Below are positions 21,628 through 54,081 of a stretch of 64,000 bases of DNA, piece by piece (within the stretch, counting starts at the first letter, position 1; every line of letters begins with the position of its first letter). Source of the stretch: Bacillota bacterium (lineage in GTDB: Bacteria; Bacillota; Sulfobacillia; JAJZYS01; JAJZLH01); contig JAKAUI010000045.1 of NCBI GenBank assembly GCA_021827745.1, positions 33,563 to 97,562 of the forward strand. The letters run 5' to 3'. The notes beneath the pieces are model-generated. The model worked only from the letters and a program-made list of their open reading frames with translations, did not search any database and had not been told where the DNA came from. A program made the translations under genes and the position numbers.

Positions 21628-22350
21628 TCAGTCGTCTCCTTGCTCCGGTACCTGGCCGCTGTGAATCGCCACGGCGCCGAACCCCATCGGCCAGGACTGG
21701 ACGTTCACCAGTCCCGCCTCTTCGAACAAGGCACTGAGGGTGGCGCGGTCTGGGAATAGGGCCAGGGACCTGGGCAGCCATTCGTAGGCTGCCTTGTTGC
21801 GCCCGGCGAGCGCCCCCAGCCAGGGCACCAGGTGATCAAAATAGAGGTGGAAGCAAGACGCCCACAGCCAGTGTTCAGGATGACTCATCTCGAGGGAGAG
21901 CACCAGTCCCCCGGGCCGAACCACCCGCCGCATCTCGGAGAGCGCCTGGACCAAATTCTGCATGTTGCGCAGGCCAAACCCGACCAGCGCCCGATCGAAG
22001 CTCTGATCGGGAAACGGCAGGGCCAGGGCGTTTCCGGTCTGCAGGCGGATCGGCAGCGCCTCGCCCAGCCGGCTGATCTTTTGAACACCCAGGGCCAGCA
22101 TCCGGGCGGACAGGTCGCACCCGGTCACTTCTCCGCCGGGCACCACCCGCCTGGCCGCCAATACCGCAAGGTCGGCCGTACCGGTCGCGACGTCGAGCAC
22201 CTTCTGGCCAGGAGCAAGCGTGGCCCGCCGCATCAGGGCCCGCTGCCACAGCCCATAGGCGCCGAGCGTCATCACGCGGTTCATCGGGTCATAGACCGGC
22301 GCGATCCGGTCGAACAACGAGGTGACGTCTTTTTCCTTGAGTCGCTCCAC
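21628..22350 (-). CDS. ubiE: Demethylmenaquinone / ubiquinone methyltransferase UbiE/MenG
   Basis: 240 aa SAM-dependent methyltransferase (VLDVATGTAD) with the UbiE-family N-terminus (FDRIAPVYDPMN). Confidence 0.85.
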   Translation of the reverse strand: MERLKEKDVTSLFDRIAPVYDPMNRVMTLGAYGLWQRALMRRATLAPGQKVLDVATGTADLAVLAARRVVPGGEVTGCDLSARMLALGVQKISRLGEALPIRLQTGNALALPFPDQSFDRALVGFGLRNMQNLVQALSEMRRVVRPGGLVLSLEMSHPEHWLWASCFHLYFDHLVPWLGALAGRNKAAYEWLPRSLALFPDRATLSALFEEAGLVNVQSWPMGFGAVAIHSGQVPEQGDD

Positions 22351-31286: not shown

Positions 31287-31368
31287 CCTTCTTGGTCATG
31301 GCGGCGAGCGCCATTTGCTCCAGCGCTGATTGGAGGGGGGTCGGTGCGTCCGAAGGCGGGCGGTTGGG

Positions 31369-32859
31369 TCAGAGCTTGATGCTGGGCGTTCCGCTCGGAG
31401 CCACGACGAGCTTGGCCCACATACCGAGCTGGATGTGTCCGGGCACCAGACAGGCGATCACGTAGTTGCCGGCGGTTGTGGCCTTGAAGGTGAAACTGGA
31501 CTTGGCCCCCGGCGCGTCGCCGAGCACCGGGTTCGGCGTTTCGTCTGTGGCTGCAAGCGCCGTGCTCGAGGTCTGCGACGCCGTGATCGCCGCCGAGTGG
31601 TTCAGGCTGCCGTCGTTGGTGAACGCCACATCCAGGGTCCAGCCCTGGGGAATGGTCACCACCATCGCCCCGTTTGCAGCCCCGTTGAAGTTGAACCCTC
31701 CGTTGGTGGTGCCGTAGCCGCCGAGCAGGGTGAGGGTGGCCGTCTTGGTGGCCGCGTTGGTGGAAAGGTAGCTGCTGGCCGCCTGCACCGGTGCGGCGAC
31801 CCCCTGGTTGACGGCCCCCAGATAGGTCAGAACGACGATCGCCGCCACCACGATGCCGCCGGAGTAGACGTAGCCCTTGCGCTCAGATGGCTTGCGGTCG
31901 GGGATCTTGTCGATGAAGGGCAAGAGCACGAGCATCAGGATGCCGATCGTCGGCAGCCCGATGATGCCGAAGGCGTCCAAGGCCGGCGGGATGTACTTCA
32001 AGAGCTGGTAGATGGAGAAGAAGAACCAGAGCGGAATCGGCACGTAGTGGGCCTTGTTCAAGGGGTCGGCGATGGCCAGGAGCGGGGCGTGGAAATTGAT
32101 CGAGAAGTAGAGCAGAGCGGCCGAAAGGATGACCAGGAACATGGTCATCTGAAACACGGTGGTCGGGAAGAAGGTGACGAGCCCCCGCTGCTTCTCCTTG
32201 GGCAGCTTCTCGGCCTCTTCCACCATGGTCAGTTGCTTGCTGAGCACCATGTAGAAGTGAAGCCCGAAGACGAGCAGGAAGAGCGCTGGCAGAACGAGCA
32301 CGTGGATGGCGTAGAAGCGGGTGAGCGTGACCCCGGTGATGTAGGGGCCGCCGCGCATCAGGAGCACGATGTAATAGCCGATCACCGGCATGTAAAAGGG
32401 CATCCAGGTGCCGACCATCGTCGCCCAGTAGGACTGCTGGTCCCAGGGCAAGAGATAGCCGGTGAACGAGAACAAGATGGTGATCAGGAGCAGTCCGACG
32501 CCAGACAGCCAGACCAGTTCCCTAGGCTTGCGGTAGGCGCCGATGTAGTAGCCGCGCAGCATGTGCAGGAAGACCAAGACCACCATGAAGTTGGCGCCCC
32601 AGTAATGCAGGTCCCTGATCAGCCACCCCAGCGGCACCGTGTGCATGATCCGCTGTACGCTCTGGTAGGCGCCGGTGACCGAGGCGTTGTACCAGGTGGC
32701 CAGGATGATGCCTGTGACCACCTGGTTGATGAACACGAAGAGCGTCCCCAGGCCCAGAAAGTCGAGCGGGCTAACTCGGCGCGGCACCCGGTGGTAGAGC
32801 TGAAGATTGATGAACGACCGGATTCCCATCCGGTCGATCACCCAGTTGGCGGGCTTCAA
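31369..32859 (-). CDS. qcrB: Menaquinol-oxidoreductase subunit: cytochrome b6 + subunit IV + C-terminal cupredoxin fusion
   Basis: Two bis-His heme-b helices (HYWGANFMVVLVFLH, HVLVLPALFLLVFGLH), a subunit-IV-like region (PIPLWFFFSIYQLL), and a C-terminal ~150-aa domain with type-1 Cu ligands (...NH..., CLVPGHIQLGM). There is no CxxCH. The likely start is a TTG at 32859 overlapping the qcrA TGA. Confidence 0.8.
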   Translation of the reverse strand: MKPANWVIDRMGIRSFINLQLYHRVPRRVSPLDFLGLGTLFVFINQVVTGIILATWYNASVTGAYQSVQRIMHTVPLGWLIRDLHYWGANFMVVLVFLHMLRGYYIGAYRKPRELVWLSGVGLLLITILFSFTGYLLPWDQQSYWATMVGTWMPFYMPVIGYYIVLLMRGGPYITGVTLTRFYAIHVLVLPALFLLVFGLHFYMVLSKQLTMVEEAEKLPKEKQRGLVTFFPTTVFQMTMFLVILSAALLYFSINFHAPLLAIADPLNKAHYVPIPLWFFFSIYQLLKYIPPALDAFGIIGLPTIGILMLVLLPFIDKIPDRKPSERKGYVYSGGIVVAAIVVLTYLGAVNQGVAAPVQAASSYLSTNAATKTATLTLLGGYGTTNGGFNFNGAANGAMVVTIPQGWTLDVAFTNDGSLNHSAAITASQTSSTALAATDETPNPVLGDAPGAKSSFTFKATTAGNYVIACLVPGHIQLGMWAKLVVAPSGTPSIKL

Positions 32860-33392
32860 TCGATCTGCCCCCCGATGTATACGTTGCCGTTCGCGATCTT
32901 GACCACATGCGGCCACAGGCCCCTAGGCGCCGGCCCTGCGATGTGCTGGCCGTTGGCGTTGTACACAGAGCCGTGGCACGGGCACTGGAACTCCTTCAAG
33001 CTTGAGTTCCACTGCACCGGACACTGCAGATGGGCGCAGTGAAAGTCGAAGGCCTGGATCACGCCAGGCGACTTCTGCCGGACGTAGACACCGTCCGGAA
33101 AGCCGGCGCCCGTGTAGTCGATCAGGGTGTAGTTGTTCGTGAACTTGTTGATCGGTCCGATGTTCTGGAGCTTGCCCAGGGGTCCGCTGGCTGGGAACAG
33201 ATTCTTCAGCGCCAGTCCGAGATAGCCGACGCCGAACAGGCCCATGGCGCCGATCAGGCTGTTTCTCAAGAACTTGCGACGGCCGAGCTCCCGCTCTGCC
33301 CGCCCATCGGCGATGCAGTCGGCACAGACCTCCCCATCGCCGTCCACCGGATTCCCACAGATGCTGCAGCGCAACCTTGTGTCCACCGTCAT
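32856..33392 (-). CDS. qcrA: Rieske [2Fe-2S] protein with N-terminal zinc-ribbon
   Basis: 178 aa with Rieske boxes CAHLQC and CPCHGS, an RRKFL twin-arginine/TM anchor, and an N-terminal CSIC...CADC motif. Confidence 0.85.
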   Translation of the reverse strand: MTVDTRLRCSICGNPVDGDGEVCADCIADGRAERELGRRKFLRNSLIGAMGLFGVGYLGLALKNLFPASGPLGKLQNIGPINKFTNNYTLIDYTGAGFPDGVYVRQKSPGVIQAFDFHCAHLQCPVQWNSSLKEFQCPCHGSVYNANGQHIAGPAPRGLWPHVVKIANGNVYIGGQID

Positions 33393-35467: not shown

Positions 35468-36229
35468 TCATTCCTCGGCAGGAGGCTCTTCGTCTGAGTC
35501 CTCGGGCGGCTCGTTCCGTCGCCTCTGGCGCTCGGCCAGCGCCGAGAGCCACACTCCGACCTCGTATAGGACCAGCATCGGACTCGCCAGCACCAGCATC
35601 GACATCAGGTCCGGCGGCGCAAAGGCGGCGGCCAGCACAAAGATGATGAAGATGGCCATCCGCCGCTTCTGGCGAAGCCAGTGCGCAGAGATCAGGCCCA
35701 GCCGGGTCAGCGCCATCACGACCAACGGGAATTCGAAGACGATGGCCAGGGGGAGCATCAGGCCAATGATGAAATCGACGTAACTGCTGTAGGTGATCAT
35801 CGGGTGCACGACCGGTCCCGTGAAAGAAAACAGGAAGCGAAAGACGACCGGCGCAAACACGAAGAAGGCGAAGGCGGCCCCGGCCCAGAGCAGAAAGAGC
35901 GCAGCCGGAGCATAGGAAATGACCAGGTGGCGCTCTTCTCGGGTCAGCCCGGGCCAGACGAAGGCGGCCACCTCATAGATCAGAAGCGGCGAGGTTACGA
36001 TCAGGGCCGCCACCAAAGAGGCCTGAATGTAGGTGAAAAAGAGCTCCGAGGGACTGATGAAGATGAGTTCCTTGATCCGACCGCCGGTGGCCAGGAGCAG
36101 AAACTGGGTCAGGCCGGTGGCATGAAAGAAGAACCAGACCGCCACCGGCAGAAACACGACCAGATACGTGATGATGCGGTTGCGCAGCTCTCCCAGATGC
36201 CCTTCCAGCTGCAGCAGCGGCCGGCTCAT
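35468..36229 (-). CDS. tatC: Sec-independent protein translocase TatC
   Basis: 253 aa with 6 TMS and TatC-family conserved segments, plus an acidic C-terminal tail. Confidence 0.9.
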   Translation of the reverse strand: MSRPLLQLEGHLGELRNRIITYLVVFLPVAVWFFFHATGLTQFLLLATGGRIKELIFISPSELFFTYIQASLVAALIVTSPLLIYEVAAFVWPGLTREERHLVISYAPAALFLLWAGAAFAFFVFAPVVFRFLFSFTGPVVHPMITYSSYVDFIIGLMLPLAIVFEFPLVVMALTRLGLISAHWLRQKRRMAIFIIFVLAAAFAPPDLMSMLVLASPMLVLYEVGVWLSALAERQRRRNEPPEDSDEEPPAEE

Positions 36230-46770: not shown

Positions 46771-48090
46771 TTGCCCGCCGAGCGTCGTCTTTTGCCCATC
46801 TATCTGTTCGGGGTGTTCATCGGCGCGCTCGACACCAACGTCTTGGGCCCGGCCCTGCCGCTGGTGGCCCATGCCTTCTCGACCACCTTGGCCTGGACCG
46901 CCTGGACGATCACCGCCTACACGGCCGCCTACATCGCCAGCACTGTGCTGGCTGGTCCGGGTGGGGACCGCGTCGGCCGACGCACATTCTTTCTGGTCGG
47001 CATCGCCCTGTTCGGGGCGGCCTCCCTGCTGGCGGCCCTGTCCGGCAACCTGCCGCTCTTCCTGGTGGCGAGAACCCTGCAGGGCGCCGGGGCCGGCCTG
47101 GTCTATCCCAACGCCCAGGCCGAGGGGATGCGGGCCTTCCCGGAGGAAAAGCGGGGCATGGCACTGGGCCTGTTCGGGGCTGTCTTTGGGCTGGCCGCCA
47201 TCATCGGTCCCAACCTCGGCGGTCTCCTTGCCCAGGCCTTCGGCTGGCCGGCCATCTTCTTGGTCAACGTGCCCTTGGCCGTGATCGTCCTGGGGCTCGG
47301 CCGCCGCCTTCCCAAGACCGAGGCCGATCACCCCGGCGGTCTGCCGGACGTCTTCGGAGGGGTGGCGTTTTCGCTCACGCTCGTCTTCTTGCTGCTGGCG
47401 CTCAGCGCCGCGTCGATGCTCAGCGTGGTTTGGCTCATGGCCGCCCTCGTCTCTGGCATCACCTTCAGCCTGCGCCAGCGGCGGGCGGCCACGCCCTTTC
47501 TCGACACCGCCCCGCTCAAGACCTCTTCTGGTGCCTTCATGATGGCGGCTGCCGGCATCATCGGACTGGATCTGGCTGCCGCCGTGTTTGTTCCAGCCTT
47601 GGCCCAGCAGGAGCTCCACTTCTCGGTCCTCTTGTCGGGCGTGGCCCTGATGCCCGCCGCCGTGGTCGGAGCCGTCCTGGCCGGTGCCGCCGGCGTGCTG
47701 GTGGATCGCCTGGGTGCGCGCCGGGTCCTCCAGGTTGGCCTGGCGGCAGCCGGTGTCGGCGGTGTCTTGATCGCCCTGCCCGACCTCACTGTGGTGCGCT
47801 TTGTCATCGCCATGGCCTTCTTCGGCTTCGGCACCGCCTTCACGCTCGGTGCGCCGATCAACCGACTCGCCACCTTGCTCTACCGCAAGGACCAGCTGGG
47901 CGAGGCCCTCTCCCTGGTGGCGGTGGCCCGGGCCGTCGGACTGATGGTCGGACCGGTGGTGTTCGGCCTCATGATCACGAACTCCGGCTTTTCAGCGCCG
48001 TTCTGGCTGCTGGCGGTCGTCTCGGCTCTGGGCGTCATGCTGCTGTTTCAGGTTCCCAACTGGCTTCAGCCTAGCCAGGTGGCCTCATGA
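46771..48090 (+). CDS. MFS transporter
   Basis: 12-TMS MFS with motif A-like GDRVGRR. The probable TTG start at 46771 has a GAGGAGG RBS 8 nt upstream. The track ORF (from 46015) is a frame left open across the antisense gene. Confidence 0.75.
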   Translation: MPAERRLLPIYLFGVFIGALDTNVLGPALPLVAHAFSTTLAWTAWTITAYTAAYIASTVLAGPGGDRVGRRTFFLVGIALFGAASLLAALSGNLPLFLVARTLQGAGAGLVYPNAQAEGMRAFPEEKRGMALGLFGAVFGLAAIIGPNLGGLLAQAFGWPAIFLVNVPLAVIVLGLGRRLPKTEADHPGGLPDVFGGVAFSLTLVFLLLALSAASMLSVVWLMAALVSGITFSLRQRRAATPFLDTAPLKTSSGAFMMAAAGIIGLDLAAAVFVPALAQQELHFSVLLSGVALMPAAVVGAVLAGAAGVLVDRLGARRVLQVGLAAAGVGGVLIALPDLTVVRFVIAMAFFGFGTAFTLGAPINRLATLLYRKDQLGEALSLVAVARAVGLMVGPVVFGLMITNSGFSAPFWLLAVVSALGVMLLFQVPNWLQPSQVAS

Positions 48091-48972
48091 CCGTCCGCCC
48101 GCGGCCTCCGTTCCACTCGTGAGCGCCGACACCAAGAGGTAGCCGATCGCCACGAACAGCACCGAGACGAGGCCGACGTGGATCAAGATCGCCCAGGTGG
48201 CGATGTGCGAGAGGATGAGGAGCACTCCGCTCAGGATCTGCAAGACGACCATGCCAAGCGCCACGTGGGCGGCCCGATAGGTGTCCGGGCGACTCACCCG
48301 GCTGCGCCGGGCCAAGAGGACCATGACCACGACCAGCACAAAGAGGCCGATCGCCACCGATCGATGCACCTCGTCCAGCTGGACCAGCGGCAGCGCGCTG
48401 GCCGACGGCGTGACGGTGCAGAGCGGCCAGGTCAGACAGGCGATGCCGGCATTCTGGTGGGCTACGAAGGCGCCGAGGTAGACGGCGAGATAGAGGTAGA
48501 AGAACAGCACAACGGACAGCCAGCGCTGGCCGAGCGGCAGGCCGCCCTCAGGGACGGTCCGCCGGCTTAAGGCGATGGCCAGCAGCGAGGTGGCGCCTAG
48601 GGCGATCAGGGCGAAGCCAAAGTGCAGCGCCAAGACCGGAGCCGACTCCGGGGCGATCACATCGGCGGCGCCGATGGCCGCCTGGACCACGATGAATAAA
48701 ACGGCCACCGCGGCCAGCCAGCGCTCGATCGCCACCTGACGCCGCCGCCACACCCAGATGGCGAGCCCGACGACCAGGACCGTGATGATGGCGGCAAGCG
48801 CCCGGTGGCTGAACTCGATCAGCGGGTGAAAGGCGATGTCTGGGATGAACTGGCCGTTGCACAGCGGCCAGGAGCCCCCGCAGCCTTGGCCGGAGTTGGT
48901 GAAGGTGACCACAAAGCCCATCTCCACCAACAGCAGGGTGGCGACAGCGGAGATCCATGCCAAAAGCCGCAT
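48085..48972 (-). CDS. ctaA: Heme A synthase CtaA (COX15 family)
   Basis: From the internal Met (MRLLAWISAVATLLLV), about 295 aa with 8 TMS, conserved Cys pairs (GCGGSWPLC, CLTWPLC) and His residues. Confidence 0.8.
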   Translation of the reverse strand: MRLLAWISAVATLLLVEMGFVVTFTNSGQGCGGSWPLCNGQFIPDIAFHPLIEFSHRALAAIITVLVVGLAIWVWRRRQVAIERWLAAVAVLFIVVQAAIGAADVIAPESAPVLALHFGFALIALGATSLLAIALSRRTVPEGGLPLGQRWLSVVLFFYLYLAVYLGAFVAHQNAGIACLTWPLCTVTPSASALPLVQLDEVHRSVAIGLFVLVVVMVLLARRSRVSRPDTYRAAHVALGMVVLQILSGVLLILSHIATWAILIHVGLVSVLFVAIGYLLVSALTSGTEAAGGRS

Positions 48973-49021
48973 CGCCCGCGGCGCCGGCTGGTCGCGCAAG
49001 GTCAAGGCCTCCCCAGGAGGG

Positions 49022-49474
49022 TCATCGGCCGAGCAGGGCCTGGAGGACGTTGGTGGTGGCTCCCGAGGGGAACACCACATAGAGCAGCAAGAACACCATC
49101 AGGCCGGAGCCGGCGGCAATCAGCCACAGGGTGGCCGTCCAGGGGGCGACCCGGCGGTGGCGCCCGAAGCGGGCCCTAAGGGCAAGGCGCAGGGTGATGA
49201 TCCCGAGCACGCCGGCCACCGTGGCCAAGGTGGCGTGCGTCTGCAAGAACACCTGGTAGGGGATGCTCCAGCTGACCGGGCCGCCGAAGGTGGTGTCCCC
49301 GATCAAAAGCGTCTTCACCACATAGGTGATGAAGAAGAGCGCACCCAACCAGGCGGCCGAGACCATCAGGCGGCGATGTCTTCCGATCTTGTGCTGCCGA
49401 ATCGCCCGCCAGCCGAAGGCCAGGCAGACCGCCGACGAGATCATCAGCGCCTCGTTCAGATAGGCCAGCCACAT
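49022..49474 (-). CDS. DUF420-family membrane protein (cytochrome oxidase-associated)
   Basis: About 150 aa from the internal Met with the DUF420 signature (LNEALMISSAVCLAFGWRAIRQHKIGRHRRLM). It sits between ctaG and ctaA. Confidence 0.65.
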   Translation of the reverse strand: MWLAYLNEALMISSAVCLAFGWRAIRQHKIGRHRRLMVSAAWLGALFFITYVVKTLLIGDTTFGGPVSWSIPYQVFLQTHATLATVAGVLGIITLRLALRARFGRHRRVAPWTATLWLIAAGSGLMVFLLLYVVFPSGATTNVLQALLGR

Positions 49475-49475
49475 C

Positions 49476-50351
49476 TCAGTGCGCCCCCCTGTTCCACGAT
49501 CCGTGGGTCTGGGGCTTGGCGCGCCCCTCGGGACGGGGCAAGAGGCCAAACTCCTCTTTCATCCGCTCGCCTCTGGCCCAGCGCCAAAATGCCCACAACG
49601 TGGCGGTACCGTACGCCAGGAGCGTCATGTAGTGCATGACCAGCCCGCCCACCTGCTGGTCTTCGAGCGGGCTGAGCCCAGGGATGAGGCGGGGCGCCTG
49701 CTCGTAGAACGTATAGAGCGGCGTCGGTGCGAAGGTGATGGTGGCAAAGGCCACCATCATCAGGAGTCCGTCCACAAACAGGTAGAGGATCTTGATCGGG
49801 TCGGCGAGGGCCGGCAGCTCTGGCAGCGGGCTGAACACGGGCCACCACATGAACAGGGCCGTGACCAGGATGGTGGCATGCTCGAAGAAGTGAACGGTCG
49901 GGTTGCGCAAGGAGAGCTCGTAGAAACCCGGGAAGTGCATGTAGGAGAAGAGCACGTTGAAGACCACCACGGCGATCACCGGCCGGGTCAGAAAGGAAAG
50001 GAGCCGACCCAAGACCGGTGCCTGGTAGATCGGCCGCCAGAACCAAGCCGGGCTGCCGATCAGCAAAAGGGGCGCCACCACGACCGCCAGCATCATGTGC
50101 TGCAGCATGTGGGCGCTGAACAGGTAGTGGTCCGAGATGACGTCGAGCGGCGACCCCACCGCCAGGTAGAGCAAAAAGAGCGCCAGGTAGAAGGCGACCT
50201 GCTGACCGGTCGGAACCGGGAGCTCCTTGCCCAGCTTGCGGCGCAGCGGACCGACCGCCCAGGCGTAGAGGGCGCCGATCACAACGACCCCGATCATGAT
50301 GTCTGGATTCCACAGAGCCGAAAATCCCCATCTGGCGAGCATCGCCGGCAC
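49476..50351 (-). CDS. ctaG: Cytochrome c oxidase assembly factor CtaG (Caa3_CtaG family)
   Basis: 291 aa polytopic membrane protein with Bacillus CtaG-like sequence, directly downstream of ctaF. Confidence 0.75.
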   Translation of the reverse strand: MPAMLARWGFSALWNPDIMIGVVVIGALYAWAVGPLRRKLGKELPVPTGQQVAFYLALFLLYLAVGSPLDVISDHYLFSAHMLQHMMLAVVVAPLLLIGSPAWFWRPIYQAPVLGRLLSFLTRPVIAVVVFNVLFSYMHFPGFYELSLRNPTVHFFEHATILVTALFMWWPVFSPLPELPALADPIKILYLFVDGLLMMVAFATITFAPTPLYTFYEQAPRLIPGLSPLEDQQVGGLVMHYMTLLAYGTATLWAFWRWARGERMKEEFGLLPRPEGRAKPQTHGSWNRGAH

Positions 50352-50400
50352 AGCTCACGCCTCCTCTCGGATGGCTGCGCTGTCCGCTCGTTCGCTCACC

Positions 50401-50706
50401 TCAGAATCGGAGCAGCACGAACAACGCCATCGAGATCAGGACCGCAACACCGAGTCCCATGCCAAAGAACATGCCGTAGGCACGTCGGCCGACGTTCAAG
50501 TGCATGAAGAGGTACACCTGAAGCACCACCTGAATGGCGGCGAAGACGAGCAAGATGGCGGCGATGAACACGGCCGGGAGCGCCCCGGTGATGACCAGGG
50601 CGAAGGCGATCACGGTCAGGACGACCATCGCCGCCATCACCTGCCAGTACCGGCGGCGATGCTGGCGTTCTGCGGACTCTGTTGTGGCTGTCACCTGCTC
50701 GCTCAT
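50401..50706 (-). CDS. ctaF: Cytochrome c oxidase subunit IV (CtaF)
   Basis: 101 aa with two TMS (MSEQVTATTE...), following ctaE. The track ORF is over-extended out of frame into ctaE. Confidence 0.65.
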   Translation of the reverse strand: MSEQVTATTESAERQHRRRYWQVMAAMVVLTVIAFALVITGALPAVFIAAILLVFAAIQVVLQVYLFMHLNVGRRAYGMFFGMGLGVAVLISMALFVLLRF

Positions 50707-50711
50707 CCTCT

Positions 50712-51329
50712 TCAGTGCACCTTTTGCATCAGGTAGACCACCGTGAAGATGATCACCCAGACCACGTCCACGAAGTGCCAGTAGAGACCGGCGATCCACA
50801 CCTTGGACGTGTTGGCCGGCGTGATCCCGTCTTTGAAGGAATAGACGAGCAAAGAGATGATCCAGAACAGCCCGAAGGCCACGTGCAGACCATGGAAGCC
50901 GACCAGGGCGTAGAAGGCGGAGGCGGAGGCGCTGGCCCCCATCGTGAAGCCAGACGCCATGTAGTGGGTGAACTCGAAGATCTGTAGGTCGAGGAAGATG
51001 GCGCCGAGCAGCGCCGTCACCCACAGCCAGATCTTCATCGCCTGCAGCTCGCCCTTGTTCATGGCCAAGAAGGCAAAGACCATGGTCAGGCTGCTCGAAA
51101 GCAAGGACAAGGTCATCACGCCGGTGAGCGGCAGGTCGATCAAAGACGCCAGGGTCACGGCTCCGGCGGTGTGGGTGTCGAGCGACAGGTAGGTGCCGAT
51201 CAGGGCGGCGAAGAAGGCGCACTCTCCAGACAGGAAAATCCAAAAACCGAGCACCCGGTTGTCCTGCGCCTTGGCCTGTTCCGGGGTCTGCCCCGGCTGG
51301 GCGGGCACAAGCTCATGGCTCCCGATCAT
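50712..51329 (-). CDS. ctaE: Cytochrome c oxidase subunit III
   Basis: 205 aa with COX3 conserved helices (FWIFLSGECAFFAALIGTY..., GLYWHFVDVVWVIIF). Confidence 0.9.
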   Translation of the reverse strand: MIGSHELVPAQPGQTPEQAKAQDNRVLGFWIFLSGECAFFAALIGTYLSLDTHTAGAVTLASLIDLPLTGVMTLSLLSSSLTMVFAFLAMNKGELQAMKIWLWVTALLGAIFLDLQIFEFTHYMASGFTMGASASASAFYALVGFHGLHVAFGLFWIISLLVYSFKDGITPANTSKVWIAGLYWHFVDVVWVIIFTVVYLMQKVH

Positions 51330-53212
51330 TCGCCCGCACCCCCGACCGGCTGGACAATCTCGCCCGGGTCTTCGTCCACGATCATGCGATGGATAGAGAA
51401 GAAGGCCAAGGCGAGGCCGATTGCCACCAAAAGGAGCAGGCCGAAGATGGCGCCGTATCCGGCGATGGTCAACCCCAGTGCGATCAGGAACGGGAAGATG
51501 GACCCGGTCGGCAGGTGGATGCCATGCGCATGATGGGCGCTCTCCCCGTCTTGCTCAGGCTCGGCCGATCTCAGCTGTCCATCGCCTTCCGTCTTCTCCA
51601 CCCACCAGGCGTCGCGGCCGCGCACGAGCGGCGTCTTGGCAAAGTTGTAGACCGGAGCTGGCGACTCGGTCGCCCACTCCAGGGCGCGCCCATCCCAGGG
51701 GTCAGGCCCCGCCCGCTCTCCGGATTTGAGCGATTTGATCAGGTTGTAGAAGAAGAAGAGGAACGAGATGGCCAGGATGAAGGCTCCAATCGTCGCCACC
51801 AGGTTCCAGAAGGCGACAGCCTGACCCATGGCGGCCGAATAGGTGGCCACCCGCCGGGGCATGCCGAGCAGGCCGAGAAAGTGCATCGGGAAGAACGTGA
51901 CGTTGAAGCCGATCATCATCAGCCAGAAGTGCCACTTGCCGAGCGTCTCATTGAGCAGGCGGCCGGTGATCTTGGGGAACCAGTAGTAGGCCCCGGCCAG
52001 CACGCCCATCAGAGAGCCGCCGATCAGCACGTAATGCAGGTGGGCGACCACGAAGTAGGAGTCGTTGTACTGGAAGTCGGCTGGCGCCATCGCCAGCATC
52101 ACGCCGCTGATCCCTCCGATCACGAACAGCGGGATGAAGCCGGTGGCGAACAGCATGGCGGTCGTGAATTTGATCTTGCCGCCCCACATCGTGAAGATCC
52201 AATTGAAGATCTTCACCCCGGTCGGCACGGCGATGGCCAGCGTGGTGATGGCAAAGAGCGAGTTCACATAGGGCCCGAACCCGTCCACGAACATGTGGTG
52301 CACCCACACCGTGAAGGCCAGGAAGCCGATGGCGATGGTGGCCAGCACCATCGAGTCATAGCCGAAGATCGTCTTCCGCGAGAAGGTGGCGATCACCTCG
52401 GAGATGATGCCAAAGGCCGGCAGAATCAGGATGTAGACCTCTGGATGGCCGAAGATCCAAAACAGGTGCTGCCAAAGCAGGACGTTTCCGCCCTTCAGGA
52501 TGTTGAAGAAGTTGGCGCCCATCAGGCGATCGAACATCAGGAGGAACAGGTTCACGGTGAAGGGCGGGAAGGCGAACAGGATCAGGACCGACGTGACAAA
52601 CGTGGTCCAGGTGAACAGCGGCATCCGCATCAGACTCATACCGGGCGCCCGGTTGTTGATGATCGTGGCGATGAAGTTGACTCCGGTCATCAGCGTCCCG
52701 ATACCGGCCAGTTGCAGGCCGATGTCGTAGAAATCGATGCCCGGGCCCGGGTTGAACGGCGTCAGGCTGATCGGCGCGTAGTTGAACCAGCCGGCGTTGG
52801 GCGCCCCACCCAAGAACCAGCTGGAGTTCAGCAAGATGCCGCCAAGCACGAACAGCCACAGGCTCAGCGCGTTCAGCCGCGGAAAGGCCACATCCCTGGC
52901 CCCGATCTGCAGGGGCACAATGCAGTTGATGAAGCCGATGAAGAGCGGCATCACGGCCAGAAAGATCATGGTGGTGCCGTGCATCGTGAACAGTTGGTCA
53001 TAGAGCGCAGGGGTGACAAAGGTGTTGCCGGGAGAAGACAGCTGGATGCGGATCATCAGCGCCTCGATGCCGCCGACGCCAAAGAAGAAGGTGGCGGCGA
53101 GCAGGTACATGATGCCGATCCGCTTATGGTCGGCAGTCGTCAGCCAGCTCATCAGGTAGCTCTGGCTGCGCTGTCGACCCTTGGTTCCGACGAGCTCAGC
53201 GACCGCTGCCAT
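51326..53212 (-). CDS. ctaD: Cytochrome c oxidase subunit I (heme-copper oxidase, A-type)
   Basis: 628 aa with 12+ TMS, heme a/a3-CuB His ligands and D- and K-channel motifs ([34 protein letters not shown]). Confidence 0.95.
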   Translation of the reverse strand: [628 protein letters not shown]

Positions 53213-53265
53213 CTCGGCTGCCCCCTTTCAGGCTGATCTCAAAGCCCTGCGACGCGCCTCCCATC

Positions 53266-54081
53266 TCAGCTGGGCACCGGCTGGCCGCCCGGCTCAACGG
53301 CTCGAGCCGAGCTCGACGACGCGTTCTTCTTCTGCATCGACTTGACCCAGGCTTGGAACTGGGCCGGAGGCAGGGCGATCACCGTCATGTGCATGTTGTA
53401 GTGGCCGACGCCGCAGAACTGGGCGCACTCTCCGAAGAAGCTGCCAGCCCGGCTCGCCTCCAGCCACATGTAGGTATGGTAGCCGGGGATGGCGTCGGTC
53501 TTGCCGCCCAGCTCCGGAACCCAGAAGGAGTGGATCACGTCGGCCGAGGTCAAGGTTAGGTTCACCTTTTCCCCGACCGGGATGTACAGGTTGTGGATGG
53601 TGCTGATCCCAAGCCCGGGGTAGGAGAACTGCCAGAAGAACTGGTGTCCGGTCACGGACACCTGGAGGCTCGTGGCCGGATTCGGGCGCCGGGTCAGATA
53701 GAACTCGCTCTGCACGGTCAGCACGGTCAGATAGATCACGATCAGAAGCGGCACGACCGTCCACAAGATCTCCAGACGGGTGTCTCCGGTGGAGGTGCTG
53801 GGCTCACGCGGATCGTTGCGGCGGGCTCGGTAGCGGATCACGGCGTATGCCCACAGGCCCATGACCACGACGAAGATCACGAGCATGATGGCGAGCGAGA
53901 TCTCGATCAGGCTCAGCTCGCGGCTCGCCACTGGACCGGCCGGCGACAGCACCGAGGCGCGCGATGTGAAATAGCTGCCACATCCGCTCAAGGTCACGGC
54001 CAAGATTCCCAGTACGGCGGGCCACTTCAAGCGGGACACAAACCGCCCAACAGCTCGCACCCACGAACCTCCCTGAGTCAT
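53266..54081 (-). CDS. ctaC: Cytochrome c oxidase subunit II (CuA, lipoprotein; no cytochrome c domain)
   Basis: 271 aa with a lipobox LSGC, two TMS and the CuA site (H...CAQFCGVGHYNMHM). There is no CxxCH motif anywhere. Confidence 0.9.
   Translation of the reverse strand: MTQGGSWVRAVGRFVSRLKWPAVLGILAVTLSGCGSYFTSRASVLSPAGPVASRELSLIEISLAIMLVIFVVVMGLWAYAVIRYRARRNDPREPSTSTGDTRLEILWTVVPLLIVIYLTVLTVQSEFYLTRRPNPATSLQVSVTGHQFFWQFSYPGLGISTIHNLYIPVGEKVNLTLTSADVIHSFWVPELGGKTDAIPGYHTYMWLEASRAGSFFGECAQFCGVGHYNMHMTVIALPPAQFQAWVKSMQKKNASSSSARAVEPGGQPVPS

Follow-up and report, generated by a model that had tools for sequence, protein, structure and literature searches.

The window analysed here, a stretch of 64,000 nucleotides (64 kb) from an uncultured, Sulfobacillus-like Bacillota bacterium, encodes a Rieske/cytochrome b complex (bc complex) and, in the cta cluster, an aa3-type terminal oxidase whose subunit II is CtaC. 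In our judgement it is fairly likely that the high-potential aerobic chain of this lineage has been rewired, with copper in place of haem c on the way from the bc complex to the oxidase. The electrons would probably move from one copper centre to the next, a route also known from some acidophilic archaea. Three coordinated changes found in the same lineage support the replacement of haem c by copper. CtaC appears to have lost a cytochrome c domain, cytochrome b carries a sulfocyanin (type 1 copper) domain where its relatives have cytochrome c, and the cytochrome c maturation (ccm) genes that adjoin cytochrome b in relatives are absent. All components of a chain like the archaeal SoxM supercomplex are encoded in the window and no haem c protein is visible there, while the electron path between them is a proposal. 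Positions of the features are collected in Table 1.

Regarding the oxidase, the open reading frame (ORF) at 53266-54081 on the minus strand encodes 271 amino acids (aa). Its product, CtaC, matches the Pfam families COX2_TM (residues 50-121, 40.5 bits) and COX2 (residues 163-234, 71.4 bits), both above the cut-offs. No cytochrome c family is found in CtaC by Pfam, and the CxxCH motif is absent too. Two hydrophobic segments are seen in the hydropathy profile (residues 58-76 and 105-123), and the Gly-Cys of the lipoprotein signal (LSGC) is conserved. The CuA ligands are complete, i.e. the H of VIHSFW and the C-x-Q-x-C-x3-H-x2-M in CAQFCGVGHYNM, and they align with those of Thermus caa3 and Paracoccus aa3. 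Note that the Q instead of E in this motif is also present in the c-bearing relatives P0005 and P0006. Subunit II of Thermus caa3 is the top match in the PDB (2yev_B, E 1.5e-47), and the alignment covers its membrane and CuA part only. CtaC stops 34 residues past the Met ligand of CuA (C-terminal sequence ...GECAQFCGVGHYNMHMTVIALPPAQFQAWVKSMQKKNASSSSARAVEPGGQPVPS, followed by the stop). The TGA is followed by a 53-nucleotide (nt) spacer with a GGGGG ribosome-binding site and by the ATG of ctaD at 53212, and inspection of the DNA up to ctaD revealed neither room for a c domain nor a frameshifted remnant of it. The true start of ctaC is probably the GTG at 54060 (264 aa), which has GGGAGG ahead of it and is identical to the start of the database protein P0001; an alternative database gene call begins at 53997 (243 aa). 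The 271-aa form has no exact match in the protein database because gene callers choose later starts.

Comparison with relatives suggests how CtaC came to be short. Among its 120 best homologues, 114 contain CxxCH; these are 295-407 aa long and have a C-terminal cytochrome c domain. The remaining six are P0001-P0003, which belong to the present lineage (264-269 aa, 85-100% identical to CtaC), and P0087, P0088 and P0107, which form a separate clade. In a neighbour-joining tree built on the shared part, the present lineage is sister to the c-bearing P0004 and nested among c-bearing sequences, which argues that the c domain was lost from a caa3-type CtaC. The second c-less clade is placed elsewhere in the tree. 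We therefore rejected the idea that the loss is unique to this lineage; judged from the tree, c domains would have been lost from CtaC at least twice. Two sister lineages (88% and 85% identical to CtaC) are conserved throughout the functional part of the protein and end at the same point. This end lies no more than about 5 alignment columns from the position of CxxCH in the relatives. The Ser-rich tail aligns with the relatives' linker and is variable among the three sister lineages, as would be expected of a linker remnant. Taken alone, loss of the c domain from CtaC is nothing unusual, since a fused c domain is lacking in most aa3 oxidases.

The second change concerns the bc complex. The cytochrome b protein contains Cytochrome_B, Cytochrom_B_C and SoxE (PF06525) in a single chain, the SoxE match (E 3.8e-18, 65.8 bits against a cut-off of 21) covering residues 384-507 of the 515-aa ORF. 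The predicted type 1 copper ligands of this sulfocyanin domain are the H in NHSAAI and the C-x4-H-x4-M in CLVPGHIQLGM, with the same C-x4-H-x4-M spacing as in rusticyanin. The FNFNG motif described for sulfocyanin (PMC3750248) is also present (GGFNFNGAANG). Cupredoxins matched in the PDB are rusticyanin, the NirK cupredoxin of nitrite reductases, and auracyanin. Hydropathy analysis gives seven helices in cytochrome b with a K/R-rich loop ahead of the last one. Since this loop lies inside, the sulfocyanin domain faces outward, like the c domain that it would have replaced. About 20 residues link the last membrane helix to the first cupredoxin strand.

Two further properties of these subunits were noted. 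The Qo-site motif of cytochrome b is PLWF (32010-32021, minus strand; residues ~276-279 of the 496-aa protein), and relatives have PIWF or PLWF, as opposed to PEWY/PDWY; a neutral second residue in this motif has been reported for cytochrome b of acidophiles (PMC4122944). The Rieske gene overlaps the start of the cytochrome b gene by 4 nt. The N-terminus of the Rieske protein (33270-33392, minus strand) has a zinc-ribbon-like CxxC...CxxC with weak Pfam matches to Zn_ribbon_3 and DZR_2, on the cytoplasmic side before RRKFLR, and similar cysteine-rich N-termini occur in relatives whose cytochrome b is fused to cytochrome c (L016 9441-9968, L015 5166-5753).

When relatives of cytochrome b were searched among 5.8 billion proteins, the cytochrome b::SoxE architecture was found in only three clusters (P0152-P0154, 85-93% identical). 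The next 13 relatives (P0155-P0167) show 51-74% identity when BLAST aligns them locally across the cytochrome b part. Eleven of these were retrieved, and eight of the 11 entered a full-length alignment, with identities of 46-61%. Each of the 11 has at its end a monohaem cytochrome c (CxxCH...MPLGG) which starts at the same point after the last helix. In the window protein a class I cytochrome c domain is absent from the C-terminus and SoxE stands in its place. The alignment thus suggests that the c domain was swapped for sulfocyanin at a fixed junction. Fusion of cytochrome b to class I cytochrome c is known as a described clade (PMC4122944). No published fusion of cytochrome b to sulfocyanin or to another cupredoxin was found in the open literature searched, which largely leaves aside subscription journals.

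A search for sulfocyanin domains in 1.84 billion representative proteins gave 878 matches, and architectures were taken from the best 150 of these 878. Within those 150, the copper-only fusion to cytochrome b is confined to the present protein and its close relatives. Other fusions were also found. Chloroflexota metagenome-assembled genomes (MAGs) encode cytochrome b::cytochrome c::SoxE (P0462, 631 aa), P0460 (790 aa) is a SoxE::COX2::cytochrome c fusion, and P0450 and P0538 (~720-740 aa) join a pyrroloquinoline quinone (PQQ) dehydrogenase to SoxE. Among the nearest matches is a 283-aa lipoprotein, P0395, with an N-terminal class I cytochrome c (CTLCH) and a C-terminal sulfocyanin 53% identical to the window domain; P0542-P0544 are of the same type and represent three variants at 90% identity or more. 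Because SoxE is fused to cytochrome b, COX2 and cytochrome c elsewhere, sulfocyanin works alongside these modules, and built-in electron acceptors of the sulfocyanin type seem to be in wide use. It is important to note that the sulfocyanin fusions of this pathway (P0462, P0460 and P0395) all keep a haem c domain. Within the larger protein library, the copper domain has its nearest relatives at 49-56% identity. Source names are attached to only two of the top eight copper-domain clusters, one being a MAG labelled 'Thermaerobacter sp.' and the other a 'plastocyanin' annotation from JGI. The genome collection yielded a single match to the copper domain outside the lineage, an archaeal sulfocyanin-like gene (L019 7329-7559, 'Candidatus Pelearchaeum' MAG; 36% over 77 residues).

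The third change was found by tblastn synteny between the window, a sister species (L013) and two relatives with the cytochrome b::cytochrome c fusion (L015 and L016). The common gene order is groES-groEL-moeA-tatC-DUF502-mrp-Rieske-cytochrome b-[block]-icd-mdh-malic enzyme-sucC. In L015 and L016 the block is about 5.7 kb long and holds a csoR-like gene, ccmE, an unknown gene, ccmA, ccmB, ccmC, DUF881 and citrate synthase. Both the window and L013 lack this block, and there cytochrome b stands directly before icd. The cytochrome c maturation families ccmE, ccmA, ccmB and ccmC were found neither at the syntenic site nor elsewhere in the 64-kb window, and no CcsA-like gene is inserted in its hemA-hemC-hemD-hemB cluster. 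Six-frame translation of the window gives four CxxCH motifs, all of them out of frame or antisense to real genes; no real gene of the window contains one. Outside the window, a search with CcmC of L015 returned an orthologue group of at least 70% identity, which is the cytochrome b::cytochrome c lineage, and then a gap down to 49% or less. Four plausible CcmC clusters (P0286, P0287, P0369 and P0337) all come from other organisms, a weak negative for the source genome. The csoR-like gene of the block encodes a CsoR-type metal-sensing repressor located between cytochrome b and ccmE (L015 7156-7476, L016 11368-11694) and is absent from the window. In the cytochrome b::cytochrome c relatives it might couple copper status to cytochrome c maturation.

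The oxidase and cytochrome b loci belong to one genome. In the independent assembly ERZ27237515, contig k141_1028756 (322 kb) carries both ctaC and the cytochrome b fusion at a distance of 21,138 nt, and the spacing in the window is the same. The window has a guanine-cytosine (GC) content of ~66-67%. An identical ctaC is present in the MAGs GCA_027420035.1, GCA_027420215.1, GCA_027447445.1 and GCA_027420195.1, and CtaC homologues with 88% identity carry the submitter name 'Sulfobacillus sp.'. The species-representative collection contains related MAGs under the name 'Bacillota bacterium' (7 loci; the source species itself is not among them).

Based on these results we propose the following course of events. 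The ancestor would have had a Rieske/cytochrome b complex with a monohaem cytochrome c domain at the end of cytochrome b, a caa3-type oxidase in which subunit II had its own cytochrome c domain, and ccmEABC maturation genes adjoining cytochrome b. Sulfocyanin would have replaced the c domain of cytochrome b just past the last membrane helix. The c domain of CtaC would have been deleted, leaving its linker as the variable Ser-rich tail, and the ccm genes beside cytochrome b would have been lost. In the resulting chain electrons would pass from menaquinol to the Rieske cluster, on to the copper of the tethered sulfocyanin, from there to CuA of CtaC, and finally through haem a to haem a3-CuB. The only hint of menaquinol as the quinol, and a weak one, is a menaquinone-type methyltransferase gene of the ubiE/COQ5 family at 21628-22350. 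With a tether of about 20 residues the oxidase would have to be adjacent, so that the two complexes probably form a bc-aa3 supercomplex. Domain architectures, ligand sets, outward topology, phylogenetic nesting and synteny are observed, whereas copper occupancy of the sulfocyanin site, its pairing with CuA as donor and acceptor, the supercomplex and the direction of flow are inferred. A more far-reaching version is that the lineage lost c-type cytochromes and their maturation altogether. A Q-cycle bc complex and a proton-pumping A-type oxidase would then be joined only by copper, by way of a tethered cupredoxin and within an obligate supercomplex. We put this version forward tentatively, as possible but not the expected outcome.

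A sequence-only reading of this stretch had described the end of CtaC after the CuA centre, with a Ser-rich tail and no CxxCH, and this agrees with Pfam, with the stop in the DNA and with the alignment. It had also listed the cta gene content including a Caa3-type CtaG, which Pfam and the gene calls bear out, and a cupredoxin fused to cytochrome b, which is real, as the SoxE score shows. The same reading held that copper replaces haem c between quinol and oxygen. The loss in CtaC, the swap in cytochrome b and the absence of ccm genes all speak for this part, and far more strongly than the letters of the stretch could by themselves; the transfer to CuA has the standing of a proposal. The search for CxxCH proteins and maturation genes that it suggested gave a negative result at the scale of the window. 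Its title claim was that the whole visible respiratory chain is free of cytochrome c because CtaC lacks the c domain. Absence of CxxCH from the real genes of the window is consistent with the claim, but the reasoning from CtaC alone fails, because a fused c domain is lacking in most aa3 oxidases, which use cytochrome c all the same.

Several further points weaken the case for a chain running on copper. The missing block held DUF881 and citrate synthase in addition to the ccm genes, and since these are gone as well, the change may be a rearrangement and not a targeted loss of ccm. Even the nearest CtaC with a c domain is only ~52% identical and comes from a cluster that lacks synteny with that of the window, so that the loss from CtaC is read from sequence relationships alone. 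Likewise, the link from sulfocyanin to CuA is drawn from sequence comparison. Nor does a c domain follow from the Pfam name Caa3_CtaG. Finally, another donor or a relocated maturation system may be present elsewhere in the genome.

The last point leads to an alternative in which cytochrome c persists in the chain. The tethered sulfocyanin would pass electrons to a further carrier encoded elsewhere, which would reduce CuA, and the ccm genes would merely have moved. The carrier could be a free sulfocyanin, a membrane cytochrome c or a cytochrome c::sulfocyanin lipoprotein of the P0395 type. Use of a separate carrier is what most aa3 oxidases without a fused c domain do, and the loss of unrelated genes together with the ccm genes also fits. 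Lipoproteins of the P0395/P0542-P0544 type are encoded in related MAGs (GCA_027343685.1 and GCA_021820465.1) and in samples of the same projects. Specifically, their loci are L036 8001-8852 (GCA_027343685.1), L039, L040 (SRR25885107) and L045-L052, and SRR25885107 holds both the lipoprotein and the present organism. Cultured Sulfobacillus, moreover, keep cytochromes c and Ccm genes beside sulfocyanins (PMC6315122, PMC6803676, PMC4378227). The source genome may encode the lipoprotein too, in which case the organism would still make c-type cytochromes. Against a further carrier stand the losses of both c domains and of the adjacent ccm genes in the same lineage. In addition, the four candidate CcmC clusters are all from other organisms, and the places listed for P0542-P0544 are on assemblies other than those of the present CtaC and cytochrome b. 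On balance we regard this alternative as unlikely.

Another possibility is that the fused sulfocyanin serves mainly as an entry point. In an iron- or sulfur-oxidising acidophile an outer donor would reduce it, the bc complex would run in reverse towards quinone and NAD(P), and the downhill share would reach the aa3 oxidase from this cupredoxin or a different one. The names of related MAGs look like those given in sampling campaigns at mine sites, a hint at the habitat. A role as primary Fe(II) acceptor has been proposed for the sulfocyanin of Ferroplasma (PMC10654088, PMC3750248), bc complexes that run in reverse are known from acidophilic iron oxidisers (PMC4378227), and the Qo motif PLWF has no acidic residue, in line with the neutral residue noted in cytochrome b of acidophiles (PMC4122944). 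However, no iron or sulfur oxidase is encoded in the window, the neighbouring genes belong to central metabolism (icd, mdh, sucCD), and sequence does not reveal the direction of flow. We consider such a role as the main function quite improbable. Note that it would still need transfer from cupredoxin to CuA and therefore complements the rewiring from haem c to copper instead of excluding it.

That the short CtaC represents a pseudogene, a fault of assembly or a quinol oxidase subunit (QoxA/CyoA) is very improbable: a split ctaD call in GCA_027420215.1 shows that the data set contains assembly errors, but an identical CtaC occurs on at least 19 contigs of independent assemblies, sister lineages at 85-88% identity end alike, GC by codon position is that of a normal gene, and the CuA ligands are all intact, whereas B. 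subtilis QoxA (6kob_B) aligns without them.

The cta cluster has the order ctaC, ctaD, ctaE, ctaF, Bacillus-type CtaG, DUF420 and ctaA. A gene for haem O synthase (ctaB, UbiA family) is not found within the cluster (48085-54081). In the caa3 cluster of a relative, ctaB (L020 10008-10934) occupies the place that is held by ctaG in the window, and hence the two clusters are not syntenic. Two of the independent assemblies differ from the window in this region. In GCA_027420215.1 (L010 10786-12647) ctaD is called as two ORFs (211 and 409 aa) and the locus is 25 nt shorter, which is probably a frameshift or an assembly error and not biology. In GCA_027447445.1 (L012 15908-20732) the sequence diverges from the window and the other assemblies downstream of ctaA. 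The genes called there are an arginase-MFS fusion, a poly(A) polymerase and genes for ribosomal proteins, where the others have acyl-CoA dehydrogenase and a LytR-family gene. Either the region is rearranged or the contig is chimeric.

Table 1. Features of the oxidase and cytochrome b loci in the window (Tat, twin-arginine translocation)
Feature	Position	Strand	Evidence
ctaC, oxidase subunit II with CuA, lipoprotein-type N-terminus (LSGC)	53266..54081	-	Pfam, PDB match, DNA
ctaD, oxidase subunit I, 628 aa, GHPEVY motif	51326..53212	-	Pfam COX1, E 1e-165
ctaE, oxidase subunit III, own gene, unfused to subunit I	50712..51329	-	Pfam COX3; gene calls of independent assemblies agree
ctaF, oxidase subunit IV	50401..50706	-	Pfam COX4_pro; gene calls
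ctaG, Bacillus-type oxidase assembly factor	49476..50351	-	Pfam Caa3_CtaG, E 2.2e-60
DUF420 membrane protein, 150 aa gene call	49022..49474	-	Pfam DUF420, E 6.7e-33
ctaA, haem A synthase, 304 aa gene call	48085..48999	-	Pfam COX15-CtaA
Unsplit cytochrome b (b6-like and subunit IV-like part, 7 predicted membrane helices) with C-terminal sulfocyanin	31369..32859	-	Pfam, hydropathy, alignment
Sulfocyanin (type 1 copper) domain, outer face	31372..31767	-	Pfam SoxE, ligand motifs, PDB and representative-library matches
Spacer from cytochrome b stop to icd start, 82 nt	31287..31368	.	tblastn synteny, ORFs, Pfam on L015/L016
Rieske iron-sulfur protein, Tat motif RRKFLR, N-terminal CxxC...CxxC extension	32856..33392	-	Pfam Rieske
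tatC, upstream of the Rieske gene in the conserved neighbourhood; context for Rieske export	35468..36229	-	Pfam TatC, E 7.5e-55; synteny

The lineage offers a natural experiment on modularity. The exit domain of the bc complex would have changed from haem c to type 1 copper within an otherwise unchanged neighbourhood, while the matching receiver domain of the oxidase and the adjacent genes for haem attachment were dropped alongside. Whether a cupredoxin can replace a c1/f-type domain and reduce CuA without haem c thereby becomes a testable question, with the c-containing relatives as controls. A possible adaptive reason is that haem attachment outside the cell is avoided and acid-stable copper proteins are used, which depends on the habitat. 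Should c-type cytochromes indeed have been lost altogether, a bacterium would have reinvented the SoxM design of archaea, with c-containing ancestral types still alive among its relatives. For annotation, the labels 'cytochrome c oxidase' and 'Caa3_CtaG' are no proof of cytochrome c.

How does this system compare with known ones? The closest sequence relatives of CtaC are the caa3 oxidases of Bacillus and Thermus (PDB 2yev), which likewise have a lipoprotein N-terminus, a ctaCDEF layout of four subunits accompanied by CtaG and CtaA, and a subunit I of great length. They differ by their C-terminal cytochrome c domain, which is absent here, CtaC stopping in the relatives' linker. For the bc complex, the cytochrome b::cytochrome c fusion clade has the same unsplit cytochrome b, adjacent Rieske gene, synteny and fusion point after the last helix. 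Its acceptor is haem c and not type 1 copper, and the ccm genes of L015 and L016 are missing from the window. The other sulfocyanin fusions (P0462, P0460 and P0395) are alike in that sulfocyanin is covalently joined to modules of the same pathway, and different in that haem c is kept.

In the actinobacterial bcc-aa3 system (Mycobacterium, Corynebacterium) an acceptor attached to the bc complex reduces CuA directly within an obligate supercomplex that has no diffusible carrier. CtaC chains of this system (examples are the entries 6adq, 7rh5 and 7qhm) are among the PDB matches to CtaC of the window, and they have no c domain of their own. The bridge in Actinobacteria is a dihaem cytochrome cc subunit (QcrC), whereas a single copper centre fused to cytochrome b is proposed here.

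Functionally the closest system is the archaeal SoxM supercomplex (SoxEFGHIM of Sulfolobus acidocaldarius; a SoxM-like complex is proposed in Ferroplasma). It combines a Rieske protein, cytochrome b, sulfocyanin and a CuA-containing subunit II with no cytochrome c, as the present chain would, and the sulfocyanin domain described here has the Pfam SoxE signature and the FNFNG motif. The present system is bacterial, not archaeal, and its sulfocyanin is covalently fused to cytochrome b instead of being a separate protein. Subunits I and III are fused in SoxM, whereas ctaD and ctaE are separate and Bacillus-like here. The genes form one operon, soxEFGHIM, in the archaeon, and the bc and oxidase gene clusters lie ~15 kb apart in the window. 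As cytochrome b and the oxidase derive from c-containing Bacillota forms, the resemblance would be convergent; the system is not a member of the SoxM group, and only its copper domain belongs to the sulfocyanin family. The sequence-only reading had called the copper wiring unusual. There is a precedent for it: sulfocyanin is considered to fill the role of cytochrome c in the archaeal supercomplex (PMC3750248). Replacement of cytochrome c by sulfocyanin is thus known from archaea, and what appears to be new is the combination of a copper-only cytochrome b fusion, a c-less oxidase derived from the caa3 type and the loss of the adjacent ccm genes.

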